A stretch of 64,000 bases of DNA from Microthyrium microscopicum. Taxonomy: Eukaryota. The notes beneath the pieces are model-generated. The model was not told where the DNA came from. It ran no database searches and saw only the letters and a program-made list of their open reading frames with translations. The translations under genes and the position numbers were made by a program. The stretch lies in assembly GCA_010405405.1 (NCBI GenBank), contig MU004232.1, positions 2,673,038-2,737,037 of the forward strand, in the 5' to 3' direction. Shown here in pieces: positions 783 through 50,050 of this stretch; position 1 is the first letter of the stretch; each line of letters starts with the position of its first letter.

Positions 783-3119
783 TCAGTCCCAGTTCGTCAG
801 ACCACTTTCATATTCTAGGCCTGCCTTTTCCATCCACTCGTGGCAAAACGTCATGCCGAAACGAACTGCTTGAGAAGGCGTCATCGTCTCATTCACCGGT
901 AGATAGAATGATGTTGCAATACCCTTGGACTGTAGCAAATCGTCGCTTTTAGGTTCTTCAACCCGTCTCTGGGCACCAGCTGCACTCGTGACCGGGAATT
1001 CTTGCTCAATCTTACCATGCGGTAACTTGAATTGCGCATGGTTGAGATAGGTTATACCATCGGTCTGCAGCTTGACTGCTTTTGCCGGCAAAGTCTCCAT
1101 CAGTGTCGAGGGCGATTCGTCCGAAGGTGTGCCAGTGTTGCTAGGACCATCATTTGTAACAGGTACAATGGTCTCAACGTTGAATTTGGCAGCAGCGATC
1201 ACAAGATGAGCCATCATGTTTGTGTGTGCGCGATAGTTGACGATGTACGTAAGATAGTGACGAAGTCCTTCGAGGTCAGGGTGGTTTCTTGTGATGTGCT
1301 TGGCAAAATTGATCAGAGGGAACAGCGTGCACCAGCTTCCATTATAATCTTCTGGTAAGCCACGAAGACGGAGACGAGCGTCATTGAAGCTATACGCTAC
1401 CATGTATGACATGACAGATTCGAGAGTGAGCACAGCTTTGCGCTTGTAATCTGGAGAATTTACGTCGTCGGTTTTAATAGCCTGGGATCGATGCTTGAGT
1501 TCTCGACCACGAGCATTGTATTTCTTTGACCACTCAGCAAGCTCAGATGCGTTGGCTGATCTGCTTGGGTTCACATTTGAGGACTTGGTAATACGGTCAG
1601 TGGCGGTTCGCGGTGGTGGTAGAGGCGTAAGATTGCGCGGTGTTGACAAGTGACTGGTGTTGGAGGTTGATCGTTGCATCGAGGTTGAAACTTCTTTGGG
1701 TGTGAGTAGTTGACGTTTACGTTGCGAGTCGACTCCATTCTGCGATGGCTGTGAAGGAGTGGAAGGTTCATCTGGTGAGCTGGAGCCATTCTTATGCCCA
1801 TTAGCGGTTCCATTTGCAGATTTGAGCTTCTTTGCGGGATGTGATGTTGGAGCCTTCTCGGCAAGTCGCTTTTTGTTGTTCTCAGGAGTAGCAAGATCAG
1901 AGTTGGGAGGTTTCTTTCCCGCTGAGGGACGAGGAGATAGTGGACGTGTAGTGCGTGGCTTGGGACTGTCGTCGTGCTTCTTCTCTCTGCTCGAGAAAGG
2001 AACAGCAGAAAATGCAGGCTCTAGTTTCCGTCTTGGCGGAAGGCGCAGAATACCCTCAACATTCTTGCGGGAGCGCTTCCCATATTTCAACTTCACAACC
2101 AGTGTTTCTTTTGAGGTTGTGTCTACTATTTCCTTCTTGAGCTCAGATTCTATTGCTTGCTTCTTCACTTCGGGCTTTCTCTCCTCTTCCACCGGTTTGA
2201 CAGCATGCTTCTCGGCCTTGTCGGTCGTCTTCGTCCCACTCCAAATGTTACTCGGAGTATTGACTTGAGACGATCGAAGGTCGGACAGCGATGAAAGGTC
2301 GGACTCGGCGCGGCTTCGCTTCTGCCGTAGTGCCTCTTCTAAATCAGGTGGCAGTGTCGGAGACAGCATTGGTGGCAAGTCGAACGCATGCTCATCACGA
2401 ATTGGAGACAACATGGGGGGTAGGCCATGATCAGGAGCTTGAAGGGATGGTGAGTCTGGTAATTTGTCCACTCTTGACTTCTTTTTGGGAGTCACAAGTC
2501 GTGCATTTGATGGTTCGGGCGATTTGCGCTTTCTCTCTGCTTGTGAAAAGCTTTGAGCGCTCTCAAATTTCTTCTTGGATGGGCCATTGCCATTCACGGC
2601 CAGAGATTTTCTATCATTTTCATCAGACTCTGGACTTGGCTTTGACTCCGTCTTTCCGCCTTGTTCCTTCTTCTGTTTCCAGGCAGCCAGGCTCATCTTC
2701 TTCTTTGCACCAGCGGCAGCCATTAGGGGCGTGTGAGGAGCGCTTCCATTCGCCATGACGCCATTTCTGTCCTGTTCCTTCATCTGCCTTTCGCGTTGTT
2801 CGTCTAGTCGTGTACGGATTTCAAAGACTCCTTCGGTACTATCGCGGAATAAGAAGCTGTCGTACTGGTAATGAATATCGTGGCGTTCGAAGCCAAACTG
2901 GTGTCGCCAACGCGATTGTTCGTTGTGGATTTCTTGTGGGTGCTTCAACGGAAGCTGGAATTCGGGGACGCTTAGAATATAAGGATGTTCGGGAAGTATA
3001 TTTTCTAATCGGGCAAGGACTGCATCGATTTTGGCAGATTCACCAGAAGACATGTGTTGCGGCTTTGTTTTAGTTGCGATGTTGAATTTGTCAGGCTCGT
3101 GTATAGCTGGCATCGACAT
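783..3119 (-). CDS. Large low-complexity nuclear protein, possibly Ell-binding protein Ebp1-like
   Basis: Long intact ORF; first ATG at 3119 (MSMPAIHEP). It has a KKKMSLAAWKQKK motif, LPPMLSP repeats, a Ser/Pro/Lys-rich middle and a helical C-terminal domain (GRELKH...ESVMSYMVAY...W.TL.P). Family assignment is from memory only. Confidence 0.6.
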   Translation of the reverse strand: MSMPAIHEPDKFNIATKTKPQHMSSGESAKIDAVLARLENILPEHPYILSVPEFQLPLKHPQEIHNEQSRWRHQFGFERHDIHYQYDSFLFRDSTEGVFEIRTRLDEQRERQMKEQDRNGVMANGSAPHTPLMAAAGAKKKMSLAAWKQKKEQGGKTESKPSPESDENDRKSLAVNGNGPSKKKFESAQSFSQAERKRKSPEPSNARLVTPKKKSRVDKLPDSPSLQAPDHGLPPMLSPIRDEHAFDLPPMLSPTLPPDLEEALRQKRSRAESDLSSLSDLRSSQVNTPSNIWSGTKTTDKAEKHAVKPVEEERKPEVKKQAIESELKKEIVDTTSKETLVVKLKYGKRSRKNVEGILRLPPRRKLEPAFSAVPFSSREKKHDDSPKPRTTRPLSPRPSAGKKPPNSDLATPENNKKRLAEKAPTSHPAKKLKSANGTANGHKNGSSSPDEPSTPSQPSQNGVDSQRKRQLLTPKEVSTSMQRSTSNTSHLSTPRNLTPLPPPRTATDRITKSSNVNPSRSANASELAEWSKKYNARGRELKHRSQAIKTDDVNSPDYKRKAVLTLESVMSYMVAYSFNDARLRLRGLPEDYNGSWCTLFPLINFAKHITRNHPDLEGLRHYLTYIVNYRAHTNMMAHLVIAAAKFNVETIVPVTNDGPSNTGTPSDESPSTLMETLPAKAVKLQTDGITYLNHAQFKLPHGKIEQEFPVTSAAGAQRRVEEPKSDDLLQSKGIATSFYLPVNETMTPSQAVRFGMTFCHEWMEKAGLEYESGLTNWD

Positions 3120-6100
3120 AGCAGTTCGGATAGCCGAGCATATGTTGATAGCAAAGCGAGAGTGACCAGCGATGTTCAAGGGCTGTTTGGCTTGGAGGAA
3201 GAGGTAATTGTTGAGTCTTTCGCAGGCTATAGTCAGTACGAGGAAGGGCAGGCGCAAAGGGGAGCTATAACGCACTAGCTGTATGGGCCTGCTTTAGAGG
3301 TTGCTGGCCATTTCTAATTGATAGAATGGACGATGGCGGTTTGACAATAGATTGGACAATAGGTTTGGCGATGGTAAATGGCGGGCTGATGGGATGAAGT
3401 TGAGTTGTCGCGCATTCTTGAAGTTGAGGGTGCTTTCCCAAACGAGGAGTGTTATCTAACCAGAACAGCAGGCGCGCTGGGTCGCAACTGCGCTGCGCGA
3501 TCCCGAGTCCCTTCCCTATTGGCAATTCCCCAAGGGCGCAAGTATTATTGATTGATGTTGATCCAGACTGGTGTCTCTGTCGCTGCTTATAGGCGCTGCC
3601 TCTATGGTTGATAGCGGCGATGCGATGGACAATCAGCTGCAAGGTTGTACCCTCCGCGATTGACAGTTGAAGGTGATTGTCGATTGGACGGAGGCCGGTT
3701 GGACTGTTGCTAGATTCCGAGATCAGGAGAACGGCGCGCGCATTCGTCCCCGCTCCCAAATGTACTTCCTGCGATTCCTATGTTGGAGGTGATGGATCGA
3801 CACGGCAAGGGCTCGGACTGCAAGTCGGCAGCGAAGATGAACTTGGCGGAGGTGACGGGCAGCTTGTAAGTTTGTGGAGGTTTCATCGCGTGGGGACCTT
3901 GGCATCTGGCGCCCTTTGCTGGGCCTCCTGGTCTGTGGGGGTTGCTCGGAGTTTACTGTGCCACCAGAACATCTACAACGCTGGCAATTTCTTATAAAAT
4001 ATCTCTCTCCCCGCCAAATCGATACTATACATAGTGCATGTATCATAACTCAAGCTCTGCGGTCGTTACATGATGATGCTCAGTCAGACCTCAACAACAA
4101 AACCCCTAAATGCGCTATCTCATGATACACTTTGGTCGAATTGATCTCAACGAAATGCTAACTGAGATCTATCCGGCGATCAAAATCAGCTTGAATTTAT
4201 ATCTTTTGGGCGTCGATAGTTGAACAGGATGAGTAACATGCTTCCATCGATTATGAGTCCATCATCCTCTACGGAATGTCTGCTACCGACTACCTTATAT
4301 CCCATGAAGACATTCACCTTCGAAATTTCAACAAGATGTCACAGACTTCATGGGATAGTCAGCTTCTTCTACGCGCCAACGGTCGCCATCGCCTTTGAAA
4401 GGGAGTATTTTCCGTTGTGTTGATTCTGAGGCAATAGCATCACTACGGTACAGAACGCTACAACCGACGAGTGTGCCATTCTTCATGCTTCGAGTGGTTC
4501 AGTAAATCAGAGAAATCGTACCATCGCGCAATCACCCTTCCGTCTAAATGCTGATCTTATTTCCCTGATCAATAGCTGCCCTGAGCCTTGGTCTTGTGGT
4601 TGCACTTCCCCAAGGCAATATCAATCCTAGCGTAACAACATGCCCTGAAGAACGATAGCTTCATCGATCGGTGCTATATCGTTTTGCTGCCTTTTGCCAC
4701 CATATAACATCAAGATTTCTTTTGCCATAGACAAAGGAAGGATAGTCAGTGAGTAGGAAATTACTGATGGACAAAATTACTGGCCTGCCTCTATCGACTT
4801 CAGTGGGTCAAAATAACTGGCGTTCTCCCATCAGCGTCGATGGCTCCCACGACGGCTATCAATCGGAAGGTGTGATAGTTGCCATCGCATTTATAAAATG
4901 TCCATGATGGCTGAATTCGCTCGATGGGCAAACAAAGCACTTGATAGCAGATCGTCTTGTATGGGAGCCATCGCATTCGCTGGGAGCGCGCCATTTATTT
5001 TGTCAACCCCTTGCCATTCTATCGAAAGCAACGACAGATATAATGGTACCGGTTGTGGGAGCCAGCGAAGCTGATGGGAGCACGCTAGTTATTTTGTCTA
5101 TTGGTCAATGATATCGTAACTTGAGGAATACAGACCTAGCTCCTGTTCGTTTAGCTGACCTCGGAATGCTTGGGTGTGATTCTTAAGCTTTGAATACCGG
5201 TCGTGAAGCTTGAGAAAGTGCTGCTGAACTGGACTATCAGATGAATAATGTATCTGACTTGATCCTACCGGGAGGGAAACAACACCTACAATTCAATGCC
5301 GAACGGACACTTGGCGGACATGAGAAATTATCGCTTGAATGATGAGTTATGAGCAATTGGACGGTTCAACCTTCAGGAAAATATCTTGTTGTAAGTGCTA
5401 TCGTCTGACTCGCAAGGTAACTGGCTCGAATCTTCAGCCTTACAATCTCAGCCTTGTCGACCCTCTGAGGCACTTTCAACCTTGTTGGTCGTTTGAGGCG
5501 AAACTGACAGTGCAGTAGCTACTCATTACAGTCATTCGGAAGGGCGTAAACTTTATCTGAGCGTTCGTGATCCTCGAGGAGCTACTACAAGCCACTTCGT
5601 TTGCAAGAACAATTGAACGCTTCGAAAGGAGCTTTCATGAATCGGATAAACTCTGAAAAGAAAAGTCGGGTTTTAGAGTAAGGTCTTGTAAGAAGAGCTG
5701 TCTCTGTGCCTGCTACCATTTCTTTCACACACACAGGCACCCCTACGTCTCAACAGTCATATATAGCTGGACGCCTGGCCCTTCGTCCCATAATGCACTG
5801 ACTCCAACTTCTTATAAGCTATATAGCCGCACCATCGTGTACGACCATCCGTATACCTAATCTTGTACGACCACCATATCTACTATTCTTACGTCTTGAA
5901 TCTATGCTTAAATAAAGCCTTCCAGGCAGTGTTCTTGATCCAGTGAAAAGAGGCGCGGCTTCTCGTATTCTTGTATTAAGCCCAATAAGTCTGCTTCATT
6001 CGCCCAGAAATCTGTATAGCTCGAATCCTTGTCATCCAAGATTTCATCCGTAATCACGATAATGGCTGATCTCGTGATATTGTCCTCCGGTTGCTTGCCT

Positions 6101-6838
6101 TGAGCATGGGTTTCTTCGATTTTCCCGTCTACTGGGTGTTCAAGGATAGGTCTTTGGTAACTTACCAGTGGGTTTGGACTGTCGACTACGAGATGTGTGA
6201 TATCCTGGTTGGATCTTCGAGTGGGCTTAGAAGTACGGAGTCAGTAGCGCAAGATATCAGAGTTTCCTGGCCTACTTCTAGATTGCTCGAGTCTACACAC
6301 TCATGTGAGACTCAATATCACTCGAAACAAACCTGTAAGACTGAGAAAACCCATCCTTTACGAAATATTTCTGAGCCAAGAAATTCTTATCTTGGAGAGT
6401 AACCCATCAGACGGCAAAATATCCCGAACTGACAGATCAGGAAAGATACCGAGAATTATAGATTGGTACAGGGTCCATCACCGAAATAACGGTAACAGGA
6501 AAAATTGAAATAATACCGCAAGATACCGATGTACCCTTCGGAGCAGGTACTACTAATAACATACAGTATTTATACGGGTACCAAGATCGCTCATCATACT
6601 AACATAATTGATCAGGACAAACGGTTACACTACCCGATAAGGAACATTTCGAAAATAGAGCTCTTACCAAATAATAAAAATGTGGTTCATAATCTATTTT
6701 ATAGAAGCTCTGGTAGGAGTTTTTCCATTACTAAAGTAGTTGTGGAATTATAAGTTTTAAGTATGACTGCCGCTTCTTTGAGCTTTTCTCAAAAGAGCGA
6801 ATCACTATTTCTACGGTGTTTGAGGACAGGTTGGAAAG

Positions 6839-23580: not shown

Positions 23581-25571
23581 TGCGCGCCATTATCATGAGG
23601 ACTTTATGTATGGCGTTGAAAGATAAGATTGGCTTTATGTACAAGTACCTGTTAGTACTTGATATTAGATATGAGTGATATTTACCCGGATTTTTGCAAA
23701 TCCAGTGATAGCCACAGCTTTGGATGTGAAAGAAAGAACTTCATGAGAAATAAAGCAGTGCAACGTACCGCGTGGCGTATGGCAACTACCAAAGTAGCCG
23801 AGAACATGCGGTTTGGGCGGTTGCTGTCGTTGACAGATGCAGTCTTACCGAATGCGCGAAATGCACGGAATGCCAAAGTATCACCGAAGAAAGCAATAAA
23901 CGAGCATCCCGGCTCTGCGATTTCAAATTGATCCAAGCCAGTGAATCAGAACCAGCATGCGTAGGATGTAGCTGCAGAGTAGAAGAGGATCCGATAGACG
24001 CCTGAGAGCCGAGCGATGATATTGCTGGCATTTCCTCTCGGATTGGACTGGTAAAGTCTGCGGCTTCAGCATTCAACAGTGAAGTTGCAGATGAAGACTT
24101 TACAGGAGAGCCACGCGCATTCTGGAATGCTCGTTGAACTGCAGGTGAAGATGCAGTGTTTATCGCCAATATCTCTTCTAGTCTCAGAGGTGTCTTGCTG
24201 GTCGTACAAGAAAAGTCGTTTAATAGACTCCTGCTTCCTATTATGCAGTCCAATTCTAGTTCAAAATTGTATAGCCATGTTCGTGAGAATAGATTCGGAG
24301 CTTGGTGACAGATTTAGAGAGGCAACTCTCTCGGCGCAATAGTCATGTTAGTTTATTATAAGTTTGCGTTGGCCCTTGGAGCGGCAAATTAGGAGAAGAA
24401 TTTCAATTAGCACGTCGATTATTCTCACTAGGCTCGATATGCCAATGTAACAGTTACTTCGCTGGTCCAAGAAACCTCTGCAGATAAGCTGCGCGACCTG
24501 AGTGTCTTGTACTTTGGCCAAGTTCAGATCCAAGAGTTTATCTCTTGGCTGAGGAAGCGGTGAAGTTTGTGTGTTACTTGACGACGTCTAAGCCTCAATG
24601 TTAATGACGCGTCGCTCCAGTCAAATAAAGTTTAAAATACCAGATCCTTTACAGATCCGATACCGATTAACGGATTTGTGATAAGTGGAAAGGCTATTGC
24701 AACTACAATGCTGTCTCAACAACGATGTAGCCTGTAGGTACCACAATCAACACTATGAAAACTTTCAAGTCTAAAAGGTTCCGTTTGCTTGGTTTAGGAG
24801 TAAACGAGAGCATATGACGTATAATCATGATGTTCATAGCATTGTTTTTGATTGCAAGCAAACGAACTCACTGCCACTAAGCTCTGAATACCCAGGTTGC
24901 TACCAACAAACTTACTGCGACTTCAATTGACTTGGAGTCACAAGACTATATTACCAATATAAACGTCCCAAAGCTGTGTGCGGTTTCCATTCGGGTTTGA
25001 ATTTGATTTCTCTCGACGATGGTCTTGAAATGATGTTGACGCGATGTAAATGACGAAATCGGTATTGCTTGGGACCGGAATCAAGGTGAGACTGAAATTC
25101 ATGCTTCAATAGCCCACAGAAGCGAATGAGCTGCGCCTATTTCACCATGTGCAGACTTACTTAATTCTACGACCTTGAATTTGTTCTAGGGACTTAAAAC
25201 AATGTGGTTTTGGTCCCAGAGGAAACTGCAACACCGCCGAAACGGAACAGCCGTCTCTGGCTGGATTAAGACCCGTCAAGTGTTCAAGGTATACTGCATA
25301 TTAAGACAAGACATTTGGCATTCTTGTACTCCATTTCCAAGTCATAGTACAGAAATATCAACTTCTAGACCTCTCTTCTTCGGGGTACAAAAGTTGAAAT
25401 CGCTCTTGGCTGGTATCCGCTGAGGCTGGGCAGCGACGATCATCAAAGGCGAAGTGTATACCCGTTGATACAGGAAAATTGGCATCCATCTGGTCGGTAC
25501 CTGCCTCCAGCTATCCATTGAACCCACCGAATTGACGAAGATGTCATTGCTCATGTAGATGCGCTAATAAA

Positions 25572-25637
25572 GGCTGTTTCTAAAATCCCCCCCAAGATCT
25601 ACTAAAATCCCCCTCAAGATCTACTAAAATCCCCCTC
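25572..25637. repeat. Left TIR with 3 tandem CTAAAATCCCCC motifs
   Basis: Motif period is about 21-22 bp; mirrored at 30067-30132. Confidence 0.9.
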
Positions 25638-27718
25638 TAGTAAAATGTGCTAAGGGCTATTCCTAAATAGGAAATAAAGATAGAAGTTTAGGTATTATTC
25701 TATATGTTAAAAAGTAGTGCAAAATATTAACATTTTTACTATAAATAAAGCCTATAGGACTAGGCTAGAATATTAACTCCTTTAACCCTATTTTTACGCC
25801 TAAAACACGCCTCTAGAGAAATTTATCTCTTCCGCATTCTATTACCGTTTTTATATTCTCCTATATCTATTCTGTATTTAATCTTAAAGCTATTTTTAGT
25901 ATAGTAGTAGGATTTTTATATAGTCTTCCTTACTTCGCTAAAAGTCTAATTAGTACTATAGTAGTAGGTCTTTTACGTAGTCTTCCTTACTTTACTAGAG
26001 TAGGAATTAATATTATAATAGTTAAAGTAGTAGTAATGCTACCTTATAAAGTTATCTTAATGGTAGTAAAAGCTACTAGCGTAAGATTTAAGGCTAAAAT
26101 AGCTTCTAAAGCTATAGATCTAGCTTTAAGGGTAGTAATATATTGCTTTAACTTCTTAATAGTATCTTCTTATTAATTAACCTTCTCTTAAAGCACTTTA
26201 TATAATAGTAAAGCTACATAGGCTATATAGTAGCATTTTAGTGCTAGTTCCTTATCTTTAGAGCTACTTAAATTTAAGGAGAGTTTAATAACTTTAGGTA
26301 TATTAATAGTAGTCTTTTTAGTAGAAGAATCTTTAATAGGTATAATATTAAACTAATTAAGCTCTTATAGTAGCATTTAGCTATTATATTCTTAAAGATT
26401 AAGATATTCTTACTATAATAGTTCTAGAGTATTATAAGTTTCTTCTTCTTTATTAGAATTAAGTTCTTTAAGCTAATTATTATAGCGTTAGTAGTCTCTA
26501 TAGCGTTTACGCTATTTAGTATACATCTTATTATATTAAGCTATTATAGTATTAAATTTACATATAATATACTCTATTTATTAACGTTCTTTTATAATAT
26601 CCTAAGTACGTTATTAAGTATTAATTACTTACTTCTTAGCCTAAGATATTTATAATATTTCTTACTCTATAGATTATACTAACGCTAAAACATTATTATT
26701 AAATCTTATTTATTGTCTTTTAGCTACGCTAATAGGCTATGTAGACGCTACTCTTAATAAGTAAGTAAAAACCCTTATCTAATTAGCTAATCTACTCAAA
26801 TCTAGCCAAGCTAGCTTACTCTAGGCCTAAGGCTTAGTCTAGCTTTAGCTAACCTCTATATATTTAGTAAACCAAAGCGCTAACTATATAAGAGAAAACC
26901 CTACTATTATGTTCTATATACTAATTTATACTAAGGCTAATATTATACCTTACTAAGCCCTATTAGCCCTCTAAGCCGTAGAAGCTTTAGTAAGTTAAGG
27001 AGCTAAATTCTAGGAAGTATTTAGCCTATTAGCACTTCTCTAGGTATATTATCTATTATAGAAATATATTCTTTTATTTAGTCTACTACTTTAAGTTCTT
27101 AAAGTTACTAAAATTATTACCCTATAAGGCTAATTCCTTCCTTATTATTATATTAGATCCCTCTATTCTTACCGTAATACTAATTTAAGGCAGCGCTAAT
27201 AATCTACTAAGAGCTATCTATCTACGCTATACTTTACTTTTAAGCTAAGATCTAGGTCCTTTAGCCTAGTATATTCTAAGTTACCTCCCCTAAATCTGCT
27301 AACTTATCCTATAGTGCTATTATACTAACCTAAGGGCACCGTACTTACTAAGCTATAGTGTCCTAGATTCTATAAGTTTCTACCGTATTATTTAGTCTAA
27401 TCTTTACCTCCTGTAGCTAGATTTTAGGCTTACTAAGCTAGGGCTAATTATCTAATCTAATTACTAAGAGCTATAAAAGAATTAGCTTTAGCATACTAAA
27501 TTTACTACGCTTTAGTAATATTATAGCTTTATTTTATATATAGCTTTGCGTACCAAGTAGCTAATTTCTAATTATATAATTTTTAATACTAGTCCATTAT
27601 TATTAGTAGGGCTTCAATAAAGATAATCTTATAGCTATATATAGTAGTTACGTAATATAAAAATTTATACCTTCTACAACGTATTAAAAAGAGCTATAGC
27701 TTATCCTCTATACCTACT

Positions 27719-27747
27719 AAAAAGGGAAGGATAACCTTCCCTAAAAA
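27719..27747 (-). other. Perfect 8-bp hairpin flanked by T5 tracts downstream of the tRNA head
   Basis: AGGGAAGG-ATAA-CCTTCCCT at 27723-27742. A5 runs at 27719-27723 and 27743-27747 read as T5 on the minus strand. Confidence 0.6.
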
Positions 27748-27793
27748 GGGGTGAACATAGCTTTAAAAGCAAGTAACGATTATCTTTTTAGAG

Positions 27794-27889
27794 TGGTAGG
27801 AGAGACGGGAATTAAACCCGTGCCCTGCGGATCTCAAGCAGGTAGGGCCTACCGCAAGATCGCAAGTACTACTACTGTACTACTCCCCT
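27794..27889 (-). ncRNA. tRNA-like Pol III head with encoded CCA and non-canonical anticodon arm
   Basis: Acceptor stem AGGGGAG/CTCTCCT followed by A and CCA. D arm GTAC-AGTAGTA-GTAC (A box). T arm ACGGG-TTTAATT-CCCGT (B box GGTTCAATTCC after de-RIP). A ~40-nt hairpin replaces the anticodon arm. Confidence 0.8.
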
Positions 27890-30066
27890 ACGCTAAAACA
27901 TTAATAATATTATAAGATAGTAGTGCTAGTATCTTAAACTAAGAGAGGATTTAACCTAATAGAGCTATAGGGCATAATTAAGATAAAGATACTTAAGGAT
28001 AACTGCTACTATTAACGCTAATTAGAGGTAGAATTCCTAGTATAAGTTTAGGTAGTTAAGGGCTACGAATTAAATAAAGAGAAGGATCTAAATCTATAAC
28101 TCTAGAGTAAATTTAATTATAGTACTAATACGGATTAATATTACTTAGTTCTAGCTACTACTTATTATTAAAAGTAAGATATTATTCTATAATATAACTA
28201 TAAAGTAATCTAAAGATCTTAGTAAAGGTATTTAAATATACTATTACTAGTTCTTTACTACTACTCTTATTCTTAAACTTCCTATACTATTTTTTAACCT
28301 TTTTAATAGTAAATATACTAATAAAGTAGTTATACTTCTATAGAACAATTAGAAGGTATTTCTTCCTTAAATTATATATAAAACTATTAGCATTAGTAGC
28401 TATAAAGCCTTAAAGCTTATAGAATTAATCTTAAAGGATAATCTCAAGGAAATTAACTATAGAGAGTAAATCTCTACCTACTTTAACCTATTCTTTAACA
28501 GCCTTATAGAGGCCCTCTAATAGCGATATTATCTTACTATTAAAGTATTAATAGTAATAAGTATATACTTTATAGAACTAATCTTTATATAGTATCTAAG
28601 TAGCCTTAATATAAGACGTTAGTTTCTATCTCTTATTATTATTAAATTTAGTTTTAAAAGCTATTTAGAGCTTATCTAGTTCGTCCTATAATAAGGCGTT
28701 TACTATCTATAAGATTATTAGTAAAATAACTATCTAATAAGTAAAATCTAGCTTACCTTAAGCTATACATTATAGGCTACTTTTTAAGCCTTTATTGTTA
28801 CTATATTACTAAAACTACCTTTAATATAATCTAAGTAATTATAGATAGCTTTAATACGCTTTTTAATATTATAGTTTAGGTAGTAGTAGTAAATAAGCTA
28901 TAGAATAAACTTATCATTACTAATATAAAGTTTAGTATAAAGAGTATTCTTTAATGCTTTATATTAATTAATAGTAATAATATTTAGTATAGAAATCTTA
29001 CTATTATCTTAAATAACTTTATTTTACACCTAAAGAGCCTATTTATACTTATCTTTATCTTTTACTATAAGGAAGATAAACGCTATTAAGAAGTAGTTAT
29101 TAATTAACGTTAAAGTATAAGAATATAACATTAGCATTTAATAATAATTAGTCTTATAAGTATAATTAAATATTATAACGTTAGAATAATTCTAATAAAG
29201 CTTAATTTACTTCTTTAAAGAAATAAAAAAATTCTTAAAATAATTATTTATAATATACGTTTTAAATATAAAGTCTAGATATTCTTTTAACTTATTAATT
29301 AAGGTCTAAACTAAAGTATAGCCTACTATGCGTTAAATTTAAACCTAATTATAAGTATTATAGATATCTTTAATAGTAATAGTAGCATTAGGATATTTTT
29401 ATTAAATATTTTTAAGTATTTACTTTAGAGTATTCTTTAGTTTTAATAATTACTTAACCTTTATAGTAATATTAGTTAATTAAATATTATATTAATAATA
29501 AGAAGCTAGCGTATCGTTTAATATAATTACAAAATAATTATAGTGTCCTTTAACGCGTAATTACTAATAATAAGCTAAATCTTCGTCCTAAAGATGCTTA
29601 ATAATAATCTTAAAGAGATATCTATTATAAACTAATATATAGTTACGTAATCTAATACCCTTTAGGATATAGTCTCTTTACTTTAAGTACTTAAAATATA
29701 TAGTATAAATCTTATTCTTCTTATTCTTTTTATTTTACTTCTTTTATATAGAATAACTATTATTTTTACTATAAATTATAACTACGTCTTTTACTTCTTA
29801 CTAGCTATTATATAATAGCGCTACTAAGATATTTAGAATAGATAGTTAATCTATAGTAGTTAATAGTAGTAGGAATATTATAGTATTAGTAGTAATAAAG
29901 AGTCGTAGTAAAAAGGAGTTAATAAAATAAAGTTAGAAAATAATATAATAGAGCCCTAGTATATTTTAGGCTAAATCCTACTATGTTAGGTTAGTTTAAT
30001 ACAAAAGTAGAGAGAATTACTATATTAGGTTAGCGTTGGCTAGGGCTTGTACCAATAAATAATCCA

Positions 30067-30132
30067 AAGGGGGATTTTAGTAGATCTTGAGGGGGATTTT
30101 AGCTAATTCAAGGGGGGATTTTAGAAACAGCC
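30067..30132. repeat. Right TIR with 3 tandem GGGGGATTTTAG motifs
   Basis: Reverse complement of the left TIR motif array. Confidence 0.9.
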
Positions 30133-30312
30133 GCTAATAAATAGTCCTCGAACTTCTTCCCAAAAAAGTGTCCTGTATCTTCATCTCTTCACATGCTCCA
30201 TCTTCCATCACTTCCCTTCTAACCATTACCAACATTCATTGTGGTAGTGGCTTTTACCATTAATCCTTCTTTTGAGCGTTATCCTGCATTTGCATTTGTT
30301 ATCCTTATTTCA

Positions 30313-31975
30313 ATGTCTCAATCCCAGTCAGAAAACCTCAGTGACATTGTGGGACACCCTGAAGCAGTAAAGCAAGGCGCCTCTGGCCCATCATCAACTT
30401 CCTCGTCATCGACGACAATATCCTCCGAAGGTGATGACCTGGCTTGGGAGGAGCATACACGGGGCTTTGAGCTTCCTCGAACACTCAAAGCTTACACCTG
30501 CTTGATCGGGTGTTTTTTCTGCATGTTCAATAGCTGGGGGCTAGGTAATGTCTTTCCGGATTTAGTAAACGACTAGACTAATGACACCCAGTGAACGCTT
30601 ATGGGACCTTCGCATCTTTCTATGTAGAGTCCCTCTTACCGAACACGAGCCTCACAGAAATTGCCCTCATTGGAGCACTCCAATGCTTCTTCATTCTAAT
30701 ATTTTCGTCCATAGCCGGAAGACTGCTGGATGCTGGCCATTATAGGAAACTCTCCTTCGCTGGGTGGGCCCTGACGAGCCTAGCAACTTTCACCTTGAGT
30801 CAGGTTGCAAGGGAACTCTCCTCCGCAGATGGAACTCGCCACATTGGGAACTATGGCGCGGTTCTGGCAGCTCAGGGACTGACTATGGCCCTGGGACAAG
30901 CTTCTTATTTTGTTTCAAGCTCACAAAGTAAGTAATCACTTTTGGCACCAAGCTCCCTACTAATTACAGCGTTAAGTTGTTTCTACTTGGTTTCCAAAAG
31001 CTAAAAACACCGCAATTGGATTTGTTGCGTGTGGAGCAAGCGTTGCTGGAGTCATATACCCCGTTGCATTCAGGAGTTTTGTTAGAGATTACGGTTGGGA
31101 AGGAGGCATTCTTCGGCTTGCAGGAATTGTGTCCGGAACTGGACTCATATCTCTCTTTCTGGCGGTACCAAATCCAACATTCCCAATTAGGAAGCCGAAA
31201 ACGTGGATATCAAGGGAAGTTTGGATTGACTATGCCGCCTTCAAGTGGCGACCATATTTGCTACATGTCTTGAGTATTTCGTTCCTGTTCCTCGGGTTTT
31301 ATTCCATCTTCTTCAACCTGGAGGAGTGGTCAGTTTCTGCAGGTTTTGGATACCGGGAAGTTTCTCCTCTGAGAGATGAGAATGACCCACCCGCAATGAG
31401 AACATTCTATCTACTTGCGATCATGAACGGTGCCAGTAGCATTGGCCGAATATCAGCTGGAGTCATTAGCGACTAGTGAGTAGCCCTGTGGTCACTTGTG
31501 TCCGGCTAACGATAGGTACAGTTATGGTGCCCTCAACACCCACTGTCTGGTAACCTTTCTATCCTCACTTCTTGTGTTGATATGGTGGCCACTCATGTCA
31601 GACATTACCCAGGCTGTGGCATTTACTATTGTCTTCGGTGCCATATCCGGCTCCGTCATAGGCCTACCCCCGGCAGTCGTTGCTGATCTTCTTGGGCCAA
31701 ATCGAATACAGCAACTTGGCCAATGGGTGGGTATGATGTACGCTTTGGCTGCCCCATTTGCTCTTATTGGACCAGTCATTGCCGCACTCCTCATTACGAC
31801 TTATGAAACCTATTTGACAGTCCAAATGTGGGCTGGTGTTTCTCTTTTTCTTTCTTCAGGGTTTATGTTAGCATCTATTATTAGTCGTCGGCGAGAACGA
31901 CAGCGAAGGGTAGGGAGTTCTGGAGTTCAAATTGAGGTTTCAGGTGCTGTAACTGGAACCGGAAGCAACGTGTGA
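30313..31975 (+). CDS. MFS monocarboxylate-transporter-family protein (MCH-like)
   Basis: Motifs FNSWGL(V)NAYGTF, GRLLDAG, WF...A.G...CGASVAG and NGASSIGRI; multiple TM helices; 3 introns. Confidence 0.88.
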
Positions 31976-32142
31976 TGATAACATTTGCTATGTGGGCGTA
32001 TTTTGACGAGACATGACATGGATGGGATTCAAATGCAACTCAGAGGTGTAATTATATTCTAACTAATAGACAGGCTTTTTCAACGCAATGACTTTCAAGA
32101 ATCAACCCCAAAGTGAAAAATGAATAGATACTGGCTTTGAAC

Positions 32143-32854
32143 CTAGTTCGGAAGACCAGGGCAGTTCTCAACACCACTGGTATCAACGGAAGTATAAGGA
32201 CTGACATCAGTCCAAATGATTCCATAGCTATTAGACAATTAGTTAGAGTCATACACGCAAGATTACCAGAGAACTCACTCGCTGCTTGGGTAGGTTGGCA
32301 CTTTCTTAGCTCCCAGTGCCTGTACAATATCGCTGAGGGCATCATGCTCCCAGCATATCAAGATGTTGCCAGATCCCTACAACGATTAGCGAGGTGAAGG
32401 TCGTCACTGGACTCTGGACTCACGGTGTAGTTGTTGACGAGCTTTGCAACACACTTCTGGTCATCACGTTGACAGGAAGTGTCAATCGGGATTCCAAGGT
32501 TTTGGGAAAGCGGGACTACAGTGTCATAGGGACGTTGTTGTGATCCATCTGTAAGCATGTGAGAAGGTGTCGTACTATTTGTGAGGAAGGACTTACCTGA
32601 TTGTGGTGTTTGTGCAATGATCTTGGCGATGTAGTAGGACGATTGATAGCCGAAGACGTTGGGAAGACATTGTGAACGCTGGACACCTTGAGCGCTCAAG
32701 CCATTGCCACTGTCTGGCTTCTCTCTGGGGTGTCCTGTTAGCAGAGTGAAAACAATTGTGAAGAAGTCGCATACCCATGTCTGATGAGATATACAGTCGG
32801 TGGACCAGCAGCTACCAAGCCAAGGAGAGAAGCAATAATAATTGAAGAACGCAT
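32143..32854 (-). CDS. Secreted histidine-phosphatase / phosphoglycerate-mutase-like protein
   Basis: Signal peptide MRSSIIIASLLGLVAA, then VYLIRHG(EKP), GLSAQGVQRSQCL, RPYDTVVPL and NILICWEH. Ends ENCPGLPN*. Several introns. Confidence 0.8.
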
Positions 32855-33801
32855 ATTGAAATATCCCACGATGTCCTATAAATATGATAATTGGACCGTT
32901 TTATGTTTCAACACTCATCCTATAAGGTGGAAACGGCCAAGCTTTATACACATTGTGATACCTCTTCCCTCTGTACTCTGTAAGACCAAGCATTGGACAC
33001 ATGTGCATATTTGCTTGTTGTATTTCCAGATTCAAGAAGGATGGGGGATCGACACTAGTAGTGCAACCTTAAATCCAACCAATCCTGCTGCATATAGCAA
33101 GAGGCGCGGGCCGAACCCGAAACGTGAGGGTTCGCGATGACCTTATTCGCTGAAAGCTTCGAGAAGCTTTACGCATAAAAAGTAGAAATAAGGCTTTGCA
33201 TAACTTCATAGTGGGATATACGCAGGCGGTGGAGGACGTGCCGTAAAGCTAAGAACAGAGGCGTTACTAGAAAGTTCGATTTTGAGGTTGAATGGTGCAT
33301 TAGGAAGATATTTAGGAAGGTGTTCTGACGGCTCGTCAACGGTTCCGTGGTTTATGCTGAAGACTAGGTGGAATTTGAGTTTAAGGTTGTCATAAAGTTT
33401 GTTTATGTGCTAATACAGCATCGTAACAGTGTGCGACAACGAGTTACAATGGAGTACAAGAGGTTCCGCTGAGAGTGGGGCGAAATACACAACTAATAGA
33501 TTGAGGTTTAGTTACGGGACTGGTCATTCTAGGAATCTCGTGTAGAAATATATAGGAAAGATCGTGTCATTCGAGAGGATACTGAAGATTCGGGGTGAGA
33601 AGGAGAAGTTGAATGAGAGACATACAAACACTCTCCAGGCTCCCTGTACTTCTTGATTAGCTGACGGCTTGAACAATAAGAGGACCTCAAGAAGACGAGT
33701 TCCAATTCTGTATACATAAGGTATAAGGGTTACTTCCCACGAATTAGACTGTCAGAAGAGGAATATCAGAAGAAATGACTGCATCGTACAATACTGAAGT
33801 T

Positions 33802-34959
33802 TCACTCTTTTGACTCTTTCTCTTCCTGTTGTATGCTCTTCCAGCTCTTGGGATACCCTCTTTCATTCCTCCACTGTTCAGCCTCAGCTTGCACACGCTG
33901 CCAAAGACCTTCTCTCCAGCCTCCTTTAGTATCATCAGCCCATGAGGGAGAGTCTCCAAAGGTCCAAGACAGAAAGCTCTCTGCTCTGGCACCATCTGGT
34001 GCGTTGAGCAATCCAATTGCTACATCAACAATATCAGGCCTATCGTCTACAGCATAGAATACCATAGCCGAGCAATTCTTGCAGAAGTAGCGCTGTACAT
34101 CCGGGGAAGACTTGTAGTACGCCAGTGTGCCCATTTGCGGATCATCAGCATCAACAGCCGCTTTGAGCTCTGCTGTTGACACTGGAAACGCTTTGCCAGC
34201 CCCTTCGGAGCTAGATGAATAGAAAATATTGGTCAACTCAGAGAACGTCCAATGGAAGATGTCGACGCCAGACTGAAGACGACACGAATCGCATACGTCG
34301 AAGGTCGCCTTGGGTTTGTGATTTCGAGGATCGATGAACCATGGAAGCTCTTCGTCCGTCTTGCCTTGATAGTTGCCAGGCTTGAGTATCAGGTCAACGC
34401 CCTTGCAATGACATTGAATTGAAAGTTCGCCACACTCCAGTTTCGCATGATAGCCTGACAAGCTCGAGGAAGGCGGCCAATCATGAGGATATTCTTCTCC
34501 TTGGCTTCGTGACTTGAAGCGTGGAATTTCATCCCCATTAACATTGGGTTTACGCAGCCACATAGTCGCGCCGCCATCTATGGTGTCTTCCACGTGCATA
34601 TGGTACATGATCTTGACCAAATCGACGTCGTGATTTTTTAAAACACCAGTGATGACGCCCAATTCACCAGGACGCTTAGTCCACTCGAAGAAGCAGCCTG
34701 AAGAGCATGTTCCGCAGAAAAGAATGGTGATGTCGTCTGAAAACTGGTACGTTATCAGTGTTGAGGTATCCACGTCCTTCGCAGCCACTGGCCAAGTCGC
34801 GCCCATTGAATAGAGTGCGCCGGTGACATGACGGCATGAATTACAGTGGCAGATTACTGCTTTCAGCGGGAGCTCAGAAGTCGGTATTTCTGCGTTGAAT
34901 GTGTGCGTTTTGCAGAGGCACTCTGCAGTTATGGTGATTTTCTCTTGGTCGGAGGACAT
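33802..34959 (-). CDS. Tandem GFA/CENP-V (Mss4-like) domain protein
   Basis: Two repeats of the Cys pattern: CLC...CHCNSCR...FCGTCSS and CHC...CDSCR...RYFCKNCS. Confidence 0.88.
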   Translation of the reverse strand: MSSDQEKITITAECLCKTHTFNAEIPTSELPLKAVICHCNSCRHVTGALYSMGATWPVAAKDVDTSTLITYQFSDDITILFCGTCSSGCFFEWTKRPGELGVITGVLKNHDVDLVKIMYHMHVEDTIDGGATMWLRKPNVNGDEIPRFKSRSQGEEYPHDWPPSSSLSGYHAKLECGELSIQCHCKGVDLILKPGNYQGKTDEELPWFIDPRNHKPKATFDVCDSCRLQSGVDIFHWTFSELTNIFYSSSSEGAGKAFPVSTAELKAAVDADDPQMGTLAYYKSSPDVQRYFCKNCSAMVFYAVDDRPDIVDVAIGLLNAPDGARAESFLSWTFGDSPSWADDTKGGWREGLWQRVQAEAEQWRNERGYPKSWKSIQQEEKESKE

Positions 34960-35549
34960 TGTGTTTGGTGATGTGAAGGAAGCTGAAGATGGATGCCTTG
35001 TGATGAATTACGATCACGATATGGAGCAAGGAGGGGTTGTACGACTGATACGAACGCGCCAAGTCTCTCCGTAATTCAAGTGAAAAATGTCCAGTTGGTC
35101 TTTACGAACCTGTAAGGTGAGGTCCAAGGATAGATACCTATAGAAACCGTATAAGACTGGTTGTTATGTGATGAAAAGCAGTGGCATCAGGACCAGCTTT
35201 TTGGCTGAACAAAATTTACTCCAGTAACGCTATGTCTTGGGACTTAAGCCGCTGCTTTAGGAGGTATTTGGGGTATTATTCGGGCGTAGAAGTACCTAAA
35301 GTAGCCCTAGCGTCGACTTAATAAAAGGGACGTTTACCCCTACTTATAGGATTAGGATTTGTAGTATATAGGGTACCCTTCTTAAATATTCTCTTCTAAT
35401 ATTAGTAGTAGTAAGGCTAAGATTATTAGGTAGTACTGCTAAGTAGCTTAATAGCTAGTTCCTTAAAGATATTTAAAGAACTTAGCTACTATATAAATTT
35501 CTACGAATAGATTATTATTAATATTATTAACTCTAGATTTAGTAGCAAA

Positions 35550-37900
35550 ATAGGTTAAACGAAAGTAAAGATAGTATACGCCTTTCTTGCTAAATATTAT
35601 AAGAAATAATGTTAATTATTAGATAAACTTAGGATAGTAAAGAAAAATTATAGCCCTTTAACGAAGAATAATATTAATAAGATATTAATTAGGTAGTATA
35701 GATAAGTAATAATCTTTACTTTTAATTAAAGCTTACTTTTAATTACTTCTTTCTAAATATTATAAAAATATATAGAAGAATACCTTAGAGTATTTAAAAA
35801 TAGCTAGTAGAGATAATATTATAATTTATCTTAAGTAGAATCTTAATAATTATACCTTACGTAAGAAATAGAGTATTTAATAAAAGTTTAAGTATTAGAG
35901 GTAGCTTTATTAAAAATTCACTTAGACATAGTAGTTAGAATTATAGGTATAAGAGGTAAATAACGTAAGTCTAACTTAATATTAAAGTAAAAGATAACTA
36001 GTCTAATAAACTCTAATACATTAATAGTAATTTAATAAATTTATATAACCTAATAATAAGTACTAAGAAAAAGCTAGTTCTAAATATTAATAATTTCTAT
36101 CTTATTAGCTACTATTACTAAGTTTTAGATACTTTAGTATTTCTAGATAAGTAATAACGTTTATAAGTTTACTTCTCTAATATTATTTATATATATACTA
36201 CTACTAGACCTAGTGCTCTAGTATATATAAAGAGGAATACTAAAGTAGTTATAGAGAATATAATTAGTCTTAAAGAAAGTATTAGTATAAACTTTAAAAA
36301 TAAGGATTTAAATAATCGTAAATCTATAAAGAAGCTAGATATACTTAAGTATCTATACTATAAAGATATTTAGCTTATTTTTCTACTAAACCTAGAAAGG
36401 GACTATAATATTCTAGTTATAGAAGTTAAGTTTAGATTTACTAAAGGCTATAAGTAGAGCTATAAGTAGTATATAGCTTCTATATTTCTAGTATTATACT
36501 AATATATAAATTAATAGGAAGATATTTTACCTATACGAGGTTAAAGACTTTATTTTTAATCTAGTTATCTATATAATTGTACTAGCTCTTTTTAATAACG
36601 CCTTTAAGTTAGGATTTTAAACTACTAAAGATATATTTAAACTTTAAGTAAAAAAGCCTTACTATTTTTTAAGTTTATAGTAAAAAAGCAAATAGAGAAA
36701 TAAACTAATTCTTTAGTAAGTAGTATATATTATAGATAATATAAAGACGTTATAATATAAGCCTTTTCATTATTATATATTCCTATATTATCTTTAAAGG
36801 CTTAGAATAATAGTAGGAATAATATAAATTCTAAATCTATATAATATTTAGCATAGTATTAATAAAAGAGTTTAAGATTAGTTTCCTTTTCTTATTATAG
36901 ATATATACTAAGTCTTATAGTTATTAGAACGTAAGGATAATTATAATAAGTTATAAGCTATAAGGATGCTAGCATCTTTTAAGCTTATATTAATAAACGT
37001 ATAATAAGCAATATATAGGCTATATTCCTTAGGCATCTATTTAAGAATGCTATATTTAAGGCAATTACTTATATAAGTTATAATATTAATCTATAAATAT
37101 TAACAAAACTTTTAGATTATAAAGTAGATTTACTTAAGTATTATCTACTTATTATAGAGCTTAAGAAGTAATAAGATACTTTATTAAAGTTAGTACGTAA
37201 TAAGTATTAGATACTTAAAAAGGCAAAAGTTAATAGAGAGCTATTATTTAAACTATATAAATAAGCCTATACTAACCTTAGCTAAATAAAGAAGAGCTTA
37301 CTTAGAGATAAGTAAAAGTAGTCTAAGGTAGAATTCTTTACCTATATTAAGACTAACAATATAAGGTAGTAACTTAACTTATTAGCTTAAAGTCTTTAAG
37401 ACGTAAATATTAACTTATCTATAGAAGTTAAGTATAGCTTAAAGGAACGAAAAAGAGTAGCTAAGCTATTATATAAGTCTCTTAGTATATAAAACCTAAG
37501 AGAAAAGACTAAGTATTAAATTAATACTATTAACGCCTTAGTATTTCTCTATTATAAAAAGGAGATAACTTAATAGTAGACTATACGTAATTACGACTAA
37601 GGCCTTCTTTCTACTCTAGAACCTTTTCTAAGGTCTAGCTCTAAGCTATTTCTTAGCCTAATAATAGTAAGCAACTTTAAGTATCTCTTTTATTTTTATA
37701 AGATAGGCTAAACTCTCTAGTTTTATCGTCTTTAAAAGGCAAGAGAGTATATTAAGCGCTAGTATCTTACTTTTTTTAGAATAGATAAGCTTATATCTTA
37801 CCCTAACGGATTTTATTACTTATTAAGTATTATCCTCTATAGCTATGCTTATTTTAAAAATTACGTTTTAAAGATATATAGATATTATTTTTTATTATAT
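35550..37900 (+). pseudogene. Starship captain: DUF3435 tyrosine recombinase relic with C-terminal Zn-finger-like region
   Basis: De-RIPped motifs: YTATRPGALV (36194-36223), LxYKDIQLIFLPNPERD.DILVMEVKFRFTKG (~36355-36450), PVIHMIALALFDDAF (~36560-36605), MGHKDAGIFQAYINERV..DVQAxFLG (36953-37035) and CLFC...HFKNH...VH (~37680-37880). Confidence 0.88.
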
Positions 37901-47679: not shown

Positions 47680-50050
47680 ATGTCTTAACTATTTTAGTAT
47701 TGCTTAGGTATCTTTAGAGTCTCTATAATTTTTAAGTAATAATTTATAGTCTCTTAACTAAAAGAATTTAGAAAGGCTTAAAGATATTTATCGCATAGAA
47801 GGCTATCTATATAATTATTCCTAGTATTATATACCTACTATAATAGATTAATCTACATTAAAGTAGTTATTTTAATTAAATGAATATATAGAAAGCTATC
47901 TACTTAAAAAGGAAAAGAATAAGCTTATTAGATTAAACTTTTCTTTAGATCTTAAGCTATACTATTTATAAGAAAAATATAAAGTATAAGCTACTAAGGA
48001 ATCTAGTAAAGTTATAAGAAAGTTGCTCTAGTAAATAATAATTCTATACTCTAATAGTAAGTATCTTTATATAATAAATACTTTTTAAAGCTTACTAAGA
48101 TACTAGAAATTAGTACTAAGATTAAAAGATCTTTAAGTAAAGATTTTAAGAATAGTACGTAGTTCTTAGACAAAATAATTTACTAAAATATTATAATATA
48201 TTAATATCTTAAGTCTTACGCAGAGTATTACTAGTAGTTGTGCCTAATATAGTATAAAGCTAATATACTATTCTAATTACTTAAATAATAATATCTAGCT
48301 TTTAATTTAGCTCTATAAAACTTATTTTAAATACCTACTTTATTATATAATTTCTAGCTAATATTCTAGCTAAAAGTATTTGTTATACGATGTAATAAAG
48401 TAATAATAAAATTATTTACCTTAGGTAGTAATACTTACTTTCGCGTAGGAGTTTCTTTACTATATAAAGTATATTTTTAATACTTAGTTATATATTCTTA
48501 GTAGCAATAAGAATCTTATAAGAGATATAAACGTAGAGATAATACGTAAGCTATAACTATAATATTTAAAAATATATAAAGGAGACTAGAGCTTCATTTA
48601 TAATGCTTTATAAAATAACTAAATCTTCCCCTCTATTATAAACTCTTTAGTTAGAGATTAGATTTTTTATTAAGTATATAAGCTCTAGTATATTATACTT
48701 AGCCTTTTTATTCTATAATAGGACCTAAAGTATATAAAGCTATATATAGCTATAGTACTTAAACTTTTATAGCTATATAAAAGAAAGTATTATAGTTATT
48801 ATACTCTATAATAAATAGCAAACTTAGTATTCTATAGTTTAGATTTAAATATAAATAAAATACTAATCTAAATATTAGAATTATTTTCTATAGACTAGAA
48901 AATATATAATAGAAACTCTTAACATTAAGTTAAGATTACCTTTTAGTAGCTTTTCCTATATATAATAAGATATATATTTAGTTTAACTAAAGAAAGTCTC
49001 TTAAAAGAAAAAGGCTAGCTATACTCTATCTTAAAAGCTTTAAATAATATTATATAGTCTTATTTTACTCTACTAGCCTCTAAACTTAGTTTTAACTTAC
49101 TTAAAATTAGAAGAAGAAAGCAAAGAGACTTATTTATTATAAAGGTATACATATTATTATTAAATCTACTAGTAAACTATTTCTATAGCTAATAATTTTC
49201 TTATTTAATTTAGGAAGTTGCAAAGCTATATAGAAACTTAACTAAGGATCTAACGCTAAGAGGTAACCTAGAGTTTATAGTAAATAGTCTAGGTATAGTT
49301 ATAAGTAGACAATATAGAAAATAAGGTAAAAAGATATATAATTATAATAGGTTATATATATTTCTAAACGTTTTGCGCTAGCTAGTAGACTTATAAGGAA
49401 GTTCTATATTATCATTATTTATTTACTAATTAGTTTTTTATACTTTCTTTAGCAATATTAATAAGCTAAGTATTAAGGTAATTAGTAAGGACTATTCCCT
49501 CTTATTATAAGATAAAGATATTAATATAAGCTTAATAGAAGCTAGCTTAGATAATAGTAAAGTCTAAAGCTTATAAGGGAATAATAGCTTAGAGGATAGC
49601 TATAATAATAACTATAATAATTTTGCCTTCTTAGAAGTACCTAAATCTATATATTAATTCGTAAAGTAGCTAGTATTATCTAAGTAACTTAGCTTAAATA
49701 CTAGTAAAAAGTTAGAAACTCATCTTACAATATAATATAAGTTTAAAGATCTAGACTTAAATATTTAATAAATTTATATTATAGTAGTAAGTAAAGAAGT
49801 AATTAAGAATAAAATTAAATATATTAATTATACTAAATTTAAGGATAAGCTAAGATATTTTAGCTATATTATAGTAGTAGTTAGTACCTCTTATACTATT
49901 ATGCATAAGGAGGTATTTAATAGAGCTTTTAATAATAAAGATTACTATATATATATAACGAAGTAGCTTTAAATTCATTACTATAAAGGAACTAGTCTAA
50001 AAAGATTATTCTTTATAATAGAGAACTCTTTAGTTATTTTTAAGCAATAT
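47680..50050 (+). pseudogene. DUF3723 Starship accessory gene relic
   Basis: De-RIPped motifs: KNLERLKDIYRIEGCL...HYVPAII (47762-47845), CLQGKHRVQAA...WWTVVLY (~47960-48050), IPSLFTL..DLKYIE.C (~48690-48745), QLFLY.MRH (~48945) and FH.FFG (~49440). Confidence 0.8.

Follow-up and report, generated by a model that had tools for sequence, protein, structure and literature searches.

The window analysed here is a 64,000-nucleotide stretch of Microthyrium microscopicum DNA (contig MU004232.1), and it contains a Mutator-like DNA transposon (MULE) that is interrupted by a 1194-bp insert on the minus strand (26696-27889). This insert probably represents a family of tRNA-headed, non-autonomous retroposons that are mobilised by a long interspersed nuclear element (LINE). 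It lies between the two copies of a 14-bp target site duplication (TSD), begins with a whole tRNA-like sequence and ends in a short A-rich tail. The copy in the window is full-length and dead, having been mutated by repeat-induced point mutation (RIP). The element and its flanking repeat have the following parts, in 5' to 3' order on the element strand; T5 stands for a run of five T residues.

27890..27903, no strand: right copy of the TSD, upstream of the 5' end of the element, exact 14-mer
27797..27889, minus strand: tRNA-Lys(CTT)-like head, with the first base of the insert as the tRNA start (Rfam, ARAGORN with -i, fold)
27831..27854, minus strand: intron-like insert of 24 nt, after anticodon-loop position 37 (ARAGORN with -i)
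27794..27796, minus strand: encoded CCA, directly after the discriminator base; ARAGORN counts it within the tRNA
26702..27793, minus strand: body of ~1.1 kb, without an open frame or recognisable domain, heavily RIPped
27719..27747, minus strand: hairpin with a 7-bp stem and a 4-nt loop, between two T5 runs, seen in the fold
26696..26701, minus strand: 3' tail, TAATAA when read on the element strand; its counterpart in a non-RIPped copy is (CAA)n
26682..26695, no strand: left copy of the TSD, downstream of the 3' end of the element, exact 14-mer

The segment is an insertion, because a paralogue of the MULE exists in which the site is empty. Contigs of the public runs X1, X2, X3 and X5 were compared with 25800-30200 at 80% likeness; X1-X4 are four runs from one sample, which is perhaps the source of the window, and X5 is another sample from another study. 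A 432-nt contig, present once in each of X1-X3, matches 26475-26682, continues with 43 other letters and then matches 27934-28114. The 43 letters are accounted for by 13 nt that complete one repeat copy and 30 nt that correspond to 27904-27933, so exactly the insert and one TSD copy are missing, and on this sequence match we identify the contig as a MULE paralogue with an empty site.

The segment also occurs outside the MULE. The summed contig depth in X1, which is not copy number, is 2342-6663 in the bins of the insert, 472-948 in the left flank and 23-876 in the right flank, or 5-20 times higher in the insert than in the MULE flanks. Position 27621 is a G in up to 14 contigs per run (14 in each of X1-X3) where the window has an A, and variant contigs at 26876 number 13, 11 and 12 in X1-X3; each listed site in the MULE flanks is covered by only 1-5 contigs per run. 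In X5, a 1399-nt contig carries 27543-27888 in one piece across the junction of the CCA and the body, with 57 differences and one gap, and precisely at the tRNA start it passes into unrelated DNA of normal GC content. A 541-nt contig of the same run is colinear over 26765-26914 and 27133-27180, and three X2 contigs break at 27888 with continuations that are mutually unlike (agreement 0.66). Dispersed copies with different flanks, a feature that short interspersed nuclear elements (SINEs) show, are thus present in contigs rather than in a finished genome, and in one independent sample. The first-pass annotation of this DNA had named a case that would speak against its reading, with the segment in every MULE copy and never on its own, and these contigs do not agree with that case: the segment is neither part of every MULE copy nor confined to them. 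Judged by the contig sequences, it is a mobile, multi-copy family with fixed ends. Metagenomes were scanned for the 3' half of the tRNA plus CCA and, with a 35-letter pattern that tolerates RIP, for the 3' end of the element; both scans returned 0 loci.

One further X5 contig of 8574 nt (record 22) matches the element at 80% likeness only over 26704-26754, which are 51 nt at its 3' end. From this match, the contig could be either a candidate partner LINE or a copy of the element whose remainder lies below the threshold.

The boundaries of the insert are precise. The 14-mer ACGCTAAAACATTA has exactly two occurrences in the window, at 26682-26695 and 27890-27903; shuffled sequence gives a mean of 0.04 matches, and at least two matches occur in 0 of 100 shuffles. 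This repeat is not extendable, the bases immediately outside its two copies being different. The element strand is A-rich at its end, where A makes up 17 of the last 29 bases and the sequence terminates in TAATAA. A 1514-nt contig of X5 stops matching at 26702, and its loose end, GTTGTTGTTG on the plus strand, reads (CAA)n on the element strand. The TAATAA of the window copy is the product that RIP is expected to make from CAACAA. The element therefore carries the LINE-type TSD (exact, 14 bp) and the simple-repeat or A-rich tail of a SINE (TAATAA here, (CAA)n-type in X5), and the exact repeat and the A/TAA-rich far end that had been noted for 26696-27889 are both real.

The head is recognised as a tRNA by several methods. 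The whole Rfam model RF00005 (1-71) aligns to minus-strand 27889..27797 with 43.8 bits (gathering score 29; E 2e-7). When introns are allowed, ARAGORN reports c[27794,27889] as a tRNA-Lys(ctt) that includes the CCA and holds a 24-nt intron, i(36,24), at the canonical site; this is the sole tRNA that it calls in the window, and its default setting calls no tRNA there. The fold of the head beats 197 of 200 shuffles (z = -2.48), and the intron-like insert lengthens the anticodon helix in the minimum free energy fold. These matches confirm the minus-strand cloverleaf that the first-pass annotation had drawn from the first base of the insert, and they place a tRNA-derived head at the very start of the element, as in SINEs. 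In a by-eye comparison of sequence only with the consensus (TRGCNNAGTGG; GGTTCGANNCC), the A box and the B box each have nine matches in 11 positions. Transitions at TpA, which is the context that RIP produces, account for three of the four mismatches; the fourth is an A for G in the B box, at a position where a purine is often allowed. The head is less affected by RIP, with a GC content of 0.54 and an index of 0.62. In X1-X3, a single contig per run jumps from 27783 to 27856 and so lacks 72 nt of the head (27784-27855), and in most other copies a T is added behind 27831, on the border of the intron-like insert, so the head sequence differs among copies.

The ~1.1-kb body that follows has a GC content of 0.30, a TpA/ApT ratio of 1.94 and a (CpA+TpG)/(ApC+GpT) ratio of 0.25. 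A Pfam search of the six read-through frames of the insert at E<=10 returned 0 families, with no reverse transcriptase (RT), endonuclease or RNase H signal. There are 33-56 stops per frame, the longest open run is 51 aa, and the stop counts do not separate the frames. For one sense frame, that with codons starting at 0 mod 3, a search of the longer and shorter length classes gave no protein relatives at E<=0.01. RIP would mask any earlier open reading frame (ORF), and the body may be noncoding, as far as a RIPped copy with relatives searched for one of its six frames shows. Within this scope, nothing speaks for the captured cargo that had been suggested for the body. Tandem repeats in it are weak (scores 31-48). 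A second match to the insert in the window was sought by blastn, which gave chance-level matches only (best 106 nt at 69%), and by a purine/pyrimidine-collapsed, RIP-blind search, in which matches of at most 54 nt are those expected by chance.

Runs of T are frequent downstream of the head. A T4 run lies at element position 122, and T5 runs lie at 143, 167, 200, 227 and 1119. One T run stands directly 3' of the 7-bp hairpin, and the hairpin and T5 runs, ~50-75 nt past the CCA, look like a terminator of RNA polymerase III (Pol III). The runs at 200 and 227 show no difference in the non-RIPped copy among the 40 of 997 rows that are listed. The RIPped window copy therefore lacks the freedom from internal oligo-T terminators that SINEs have.

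The mutational pattern identifies the window copy as the RIPped one: of 91 differences between X5 and the window, 87 have A or T in the window and G or C in X5. The flanks of the MULE have a TpA/ApT ratio of 1.6-1.78 and a (CpA+TpG)/(ApC+GpT) ratio of 0.17-0.19, and the indices of the body agree with theirs. The gene-rich part of the window has values of 0.71 and 1.27, respectively.

The transposon that hosts the insert has the following features.

25572..30132, minus strand: host Mutator-like element with terminal inverted repeats (TIRs), TSD and transposase homology, RIP-degraded
25565-25636 and 30068-30139: TIR arms of 72 nt, 86% complementary, with three 22-bp sub-repeats
25563..25571, no strand: left copy of the MULE TSD GCTAATAAA, 9 bp, identical to the right copy
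30133..30141, no strand: right copy of the MULE TSD GCTAATAAA, perfect 9 bp
27996..29521, minus strand: remains of the MULE transposase ORF, with stops read through as X

With the 1208-bp insertion the host measures 4561 bp; once this is subtracted, 3353 bp remain. On the read-through minus strand, the Pfam family PF10551 scores 18.5 bits (E 0.0028), which is below its cutoff. A phmmer search with the transposase frame finds 218 proteins at E<=1e-3 (best 1.1e-20), and PF10551 is above cutoff in all 13 relatives examined, which were picked from 150 listed among the 218. When these 150 are aligned to 25401-30300 by tblastn, they give 113 high-scoring segment pairs (HSPs) at E<1e-3, all of them on the minus strand in 27996-29521. 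Residues 358-557 of one 650-aa homologue (P0030) align to 28613-27996 (E 2.5e-4), and by this one homologue the insertion point (27904) lies near residue 588 of 650, which belongs to the C-terminal part of the ORF. With the features of a MULE DDE transposase, long TIRs and a TSD of 9-11 bp all present, the sequence identifies the host as a genuine Mutator-like element, as had been annotated. The further claim that removal of the insert joins the transposase frame to a left half is not supported. The codon starts named for it (28515, 28131 and 27891) are indeed in one register, 0 mod 3, but the homology lies in other registers: 29476-28769 is read at 1 mod 3 and 28613-27996 at 2 mod 3. The coiled-coil-like reading proposed for that left half is likewise not supported, as tblastn yields only 12 HSPs left of the insert, all with E >=0.12. 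With a length of ~3.3 kb, long TIRs, a 9-bp TSD and a PF10551 transposase, the host resembles the Hop-like Mutator elements of fungi, and it differs from them in being RIP-degraded and interrupted by a retroposon. A 57-bp tandem repeat (25900-26022; 2.2 copies, 79% match) occupies a sub-terminal position near the left TIR.

The 14-bp TSD together with a precisely defined 5' end, a microsatellite tail, a body without domains and no TIRs on the insert is most compatible with target-primed reverse transcription by a LINE enzyme. Retro-insertions made by LINEs and bounded by 14-bp repeats have a precedent in fungi (PMC2104539). The element would read, from 5' to 3', as a tRNA-Lys(CUU)-like head with its 24-nt intron-like insert and CCA, the ~1.1-kb body and a short (CAA)n-type tail. 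Reverse transcription of an RNA copy of it would have taken place at a nicked, AT-rich site within the C-terminal part of the 3.35-kb MULE, and the target-primed machinery of a putative autonomous LINE would have carried out the insertion and left the 14-bp TSD. RIP would afterwards have mutated both the host MULE and its guest.

Several observations weigh against a LINE-mobilised, tRNA-headed family. The window has no second match to the insert, and a partner LINE did not appear in domain and match searches of the window; in 35000-64000, no RT or endonuclease domain is found at E<=0.01. The 3' 120 nt of this RIPped copy have no excess structure (z = -0.38). Contig depth is not a measure of copy number, contigs over the head could include genuine tRNA-Lys genes, and the independent support comes from the single run X5. 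The encoded CCA could be a matter of chance (1 in 64). Finally, the 1194 bp exceed the short length that defines SINEs (~80-700 bp, with quoted fungal examples to 900 bp), and T4 or T5 runs occur at element positions 122, 143, 167, 200 and 227. Because of this length and the four T5 runs in its first 230 nt, the element is doubtful as a SINE in the strict sense. From the long SINE family of the first-pass annotation, what stands is a multi-copy family of retroposons without long terminal repeats (non-LTR). We file the element as a LINE-dependent, small-RNA-headed non-autonomous retroposon at the long end of that kind and with an unusually complete head. A literature search, with Repbase and Dfam outside its scope, found no description of such an element.

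The same data could be explained by an internally deleted ('bipartite') or 5'-truncated LINE that acquired a tRNA head, with a body made of the remains of LINE untranslated regions or ORFs; a tRNA-capped non-autonomous LINE would then be a better name than SINE. The length of the element suits this origin, the encoded CCA fits an acquisition at the RNA level, and the 8574-nt contig shares only the 3' end of the element at the 80% threshold. However, that contig may be a mere copy whose remainder falls below 80% likeness, and the six read-through frames lack RT, endonuclease and RNase H signals just as the searched sense frame lacks relatives in both length classes, although RIP weakens each of these tests. 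On balance we judge a bipartite LINE to be unlikely. A different route to the same architecture is a one-off chimeric retro-insertion, in which a tRNA was fused to another RNA by template switching in a single LINE event. A full sense tRNA with CCA that is fused to other sequence and bounded by a 14-bp TSD corresponds to the U6/L1-type and Magnaporthe architecture, as far as the latter is described in PMC2104539. The Magnaporthe elements in question are the MINE/WEIRD-MGL chimeric retrogenes, which are LINE-mediated and of which one is flanked by 14-bp direct repeats (PMC2104539). They share with the present element a fungal host, an RNA-RNA fusion and direct repeats of this length, but they are individual chimeras, whereas here a family with a fixed junction has been amplified. 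The same junction and 5' end recur in the independent sample X5, where one contig runs through 27543-27888, junction included, without a break. In X1-X3, single sites in the body are covered by as many as 14 contigs per run, and a one-off event is largely refuted and very improbable. Mammalian L1-tRNA chimeras, moreover, are described as carrying mostly antisense half tRNAs (10.1101/2025.02.02.635956), and the present element is therefore not simply an L1-tRNA chimera.

Two explanations at the DNA level fare no better. MULEs capture host DNA, and since the segment sits inside one, it might be internal cargo, that is, a Pack-MULE capture of a tRNA gene and neighbouring DNA with the 14-bp repeat as a capture scar. 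This is refuted by the empty-site paralogue, which has exactly the predicted length, and by copies outside the MULE context, as seen in the non-MULE flanks of the X5 copies and a depth 5-20 times that of the MULE flanks; we regard it as barely credible. The AT-rich body and GC-rich tRNA are superficially like fungal mitochondrial DNA, which could suggest filler of AT-rich organelle DNA with a tRNA, comparable to a nuclear mitochondrial DNA segment (NUMT), or else a DNA-level element that makes 14-bp TSDs. Yet the AT-richness is attributable to RIP (TpA/ApT of 1.94, with non-RIPped, GC-normal copies in existence), TIRs are lacking, and filler insertions do not build families with fixed ends and microsatellite tails. 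Either version is highly unlikely.

Within the LINE-mobilised reading, the tRNA head may serve as a promoter for Pol III. Because four T5 runs lie in the first 230 nt, a Pol III transcript of full length is doubtful, and we think it somewhat unlikely that Pol III makes the transposition RNA. An RNA polymerase II (Pol II) or read-through transcript, with its 5' end cut by RNase P at the tRNA-like head, is a comparably doubtful source. The head may have been gained at the RNA level, by template switching of an RT onto an end-processed pre-tRNA; the encoded CCA hints at such a gain, which we consider somewhat less likely than not. Nuclear tRNA genes are not known to encode CCA, and in yeasts CCA-tailed unspliced tRNA precursors occur in the cytoplasm. 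An origin from strong-stop DNA, an idea that is reportedly that of Okada and Ohshima, was dropped because no primer-binding site complementary to the tRNA 3' end exists elsewhere in the window (at most three mismatches); the head itself is the only match, and the pattern also matches in 13 of 100 shuffles.

A more specific origin of the family, which we hold to be quite improbable, would have the RT of a fungal LINE switch onto an end-processed, CCA-tailed and intron-containing pre-tRNA-Lys, with the head acting as an RNA-processing cap and not mainly as a promoter. RNase P would then trim transcripts made by read-through or by Pol II so that they begin exactly at base 1. The encoded CCA, which is an anti-determinant for RNase Z, would stop that enzyme from detaching the head from the 1.1-kb body. 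If true, the element would be a tRNA-capped long retroposon whose 5'-end definition parallels that by the ribozymes of R2-type LINEs.

The closest parallels are compared here as far as the cited passages describe them. The fungal tRNA-derived SINEs quoted in PMC5063351 (MgSINE, 472 bp; Foxy; SINE2-1_BG) range from 472 to 900 bp. Like the present element, they have a 5'-terminal tRNA-related head, a simple 3' tail, a TSD of variable length, tens of dispersed copies and a presumed dependence on LINEs; they are also non-coding, as the present element appears to be. The present element differs from them in its 1194 bp (against 472-900 bp; PMC5063351) and in having a whole tRNA with an intron-like insert, an encoded CCA and T5 runs close behind. 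Eg-R1 and EGH24 of Blumeria are SINE-like non-autonomous non-LTR retroposons of 700-900 bp. Their internal oligo-T stretches have been read as evidence against Pol III, and their RNAs are attributed to Pol II (10.1101/242271). They resemble our element as long, non-autonomous non-LTR elements with internal oligo-T. In the same account, Eg-R1 is without 5' A and B boxes and Blumeria without RIP, whereas the present element starts with a full tRNA and the present copy is RIP-mutated.

The shape of the element is matched by the model of Kojima (2018), in which a template switch adds a small-RNA head to an internally deleted LINE (PMC5786205); on this comparison, the model fits. SINEU, as cited in 10.1101/242271, likewise combines a small-RNA head with a bipartite LINE, and tRNA-headed SINEs that end in (CAT)n have been described (PMC5786205). 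Such elements share with ours a head, a long middle body and a microsatellite tail, and the CCA is the RNA-level footprint that would be expected. The examples given in that source come from animals, and in the present element a LINE origin of the body is only putative.

The surroundings of the MULE are divided into sharp isochores. Gene-bearing sequence with a GC content of 0.45-0.52 (MatE, MFS, GFA and GT34) occupies 1-25500 and 30200-35500, in contrast to 36000-64000, where GC is 0.20-0.24 and RIP indices are strong. The MULE and its retroposon form an isolated AT-rich island between two genes. In the AT-rich, RIPped 28-kb block (GC ~0.21), read-through frames on the plus strand match DUF3435 (PF11917) at 36962-37544 (E 4.5e-9) and DUF3723 (PF12520) at 48440-49454 (E 1.1e-22). 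These two domains presumably travel together in giant 'Starship' or Crypton-type fungal elements, and the block may be a RIP-killed relic of such an element. At the opposite end of the window, an 836-aa open frame (783-3293, minus strand) has named relatives among the Dothideomycetes (Venturia, Zopfia and Tothia) with 27-30% identity at best. Some of its relatives carry PF21204, and metagenome relatives are closer (33-38%); the source lineage is probably a thinly sampled one of this class.

SINE-like elements are sparsely described in filamentous fungi. The element is of practical relevance for annotation, since it is long enough for RIP, tags nested insertions within AT-rich isochores and has a head that tRNA finders overlook at their default settings. 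A 1.2-kb family with a complete tRNA head, an encoded CCA and T runs that speak against Pol III would serve as a test case for how such heads are acquired, and for which polymerase and processing steps yield the RNA for transposition. The established view of LINE-dependent retroposons is left intact by this element, which is an unusually long but otherwise fairly ordinary parasite.

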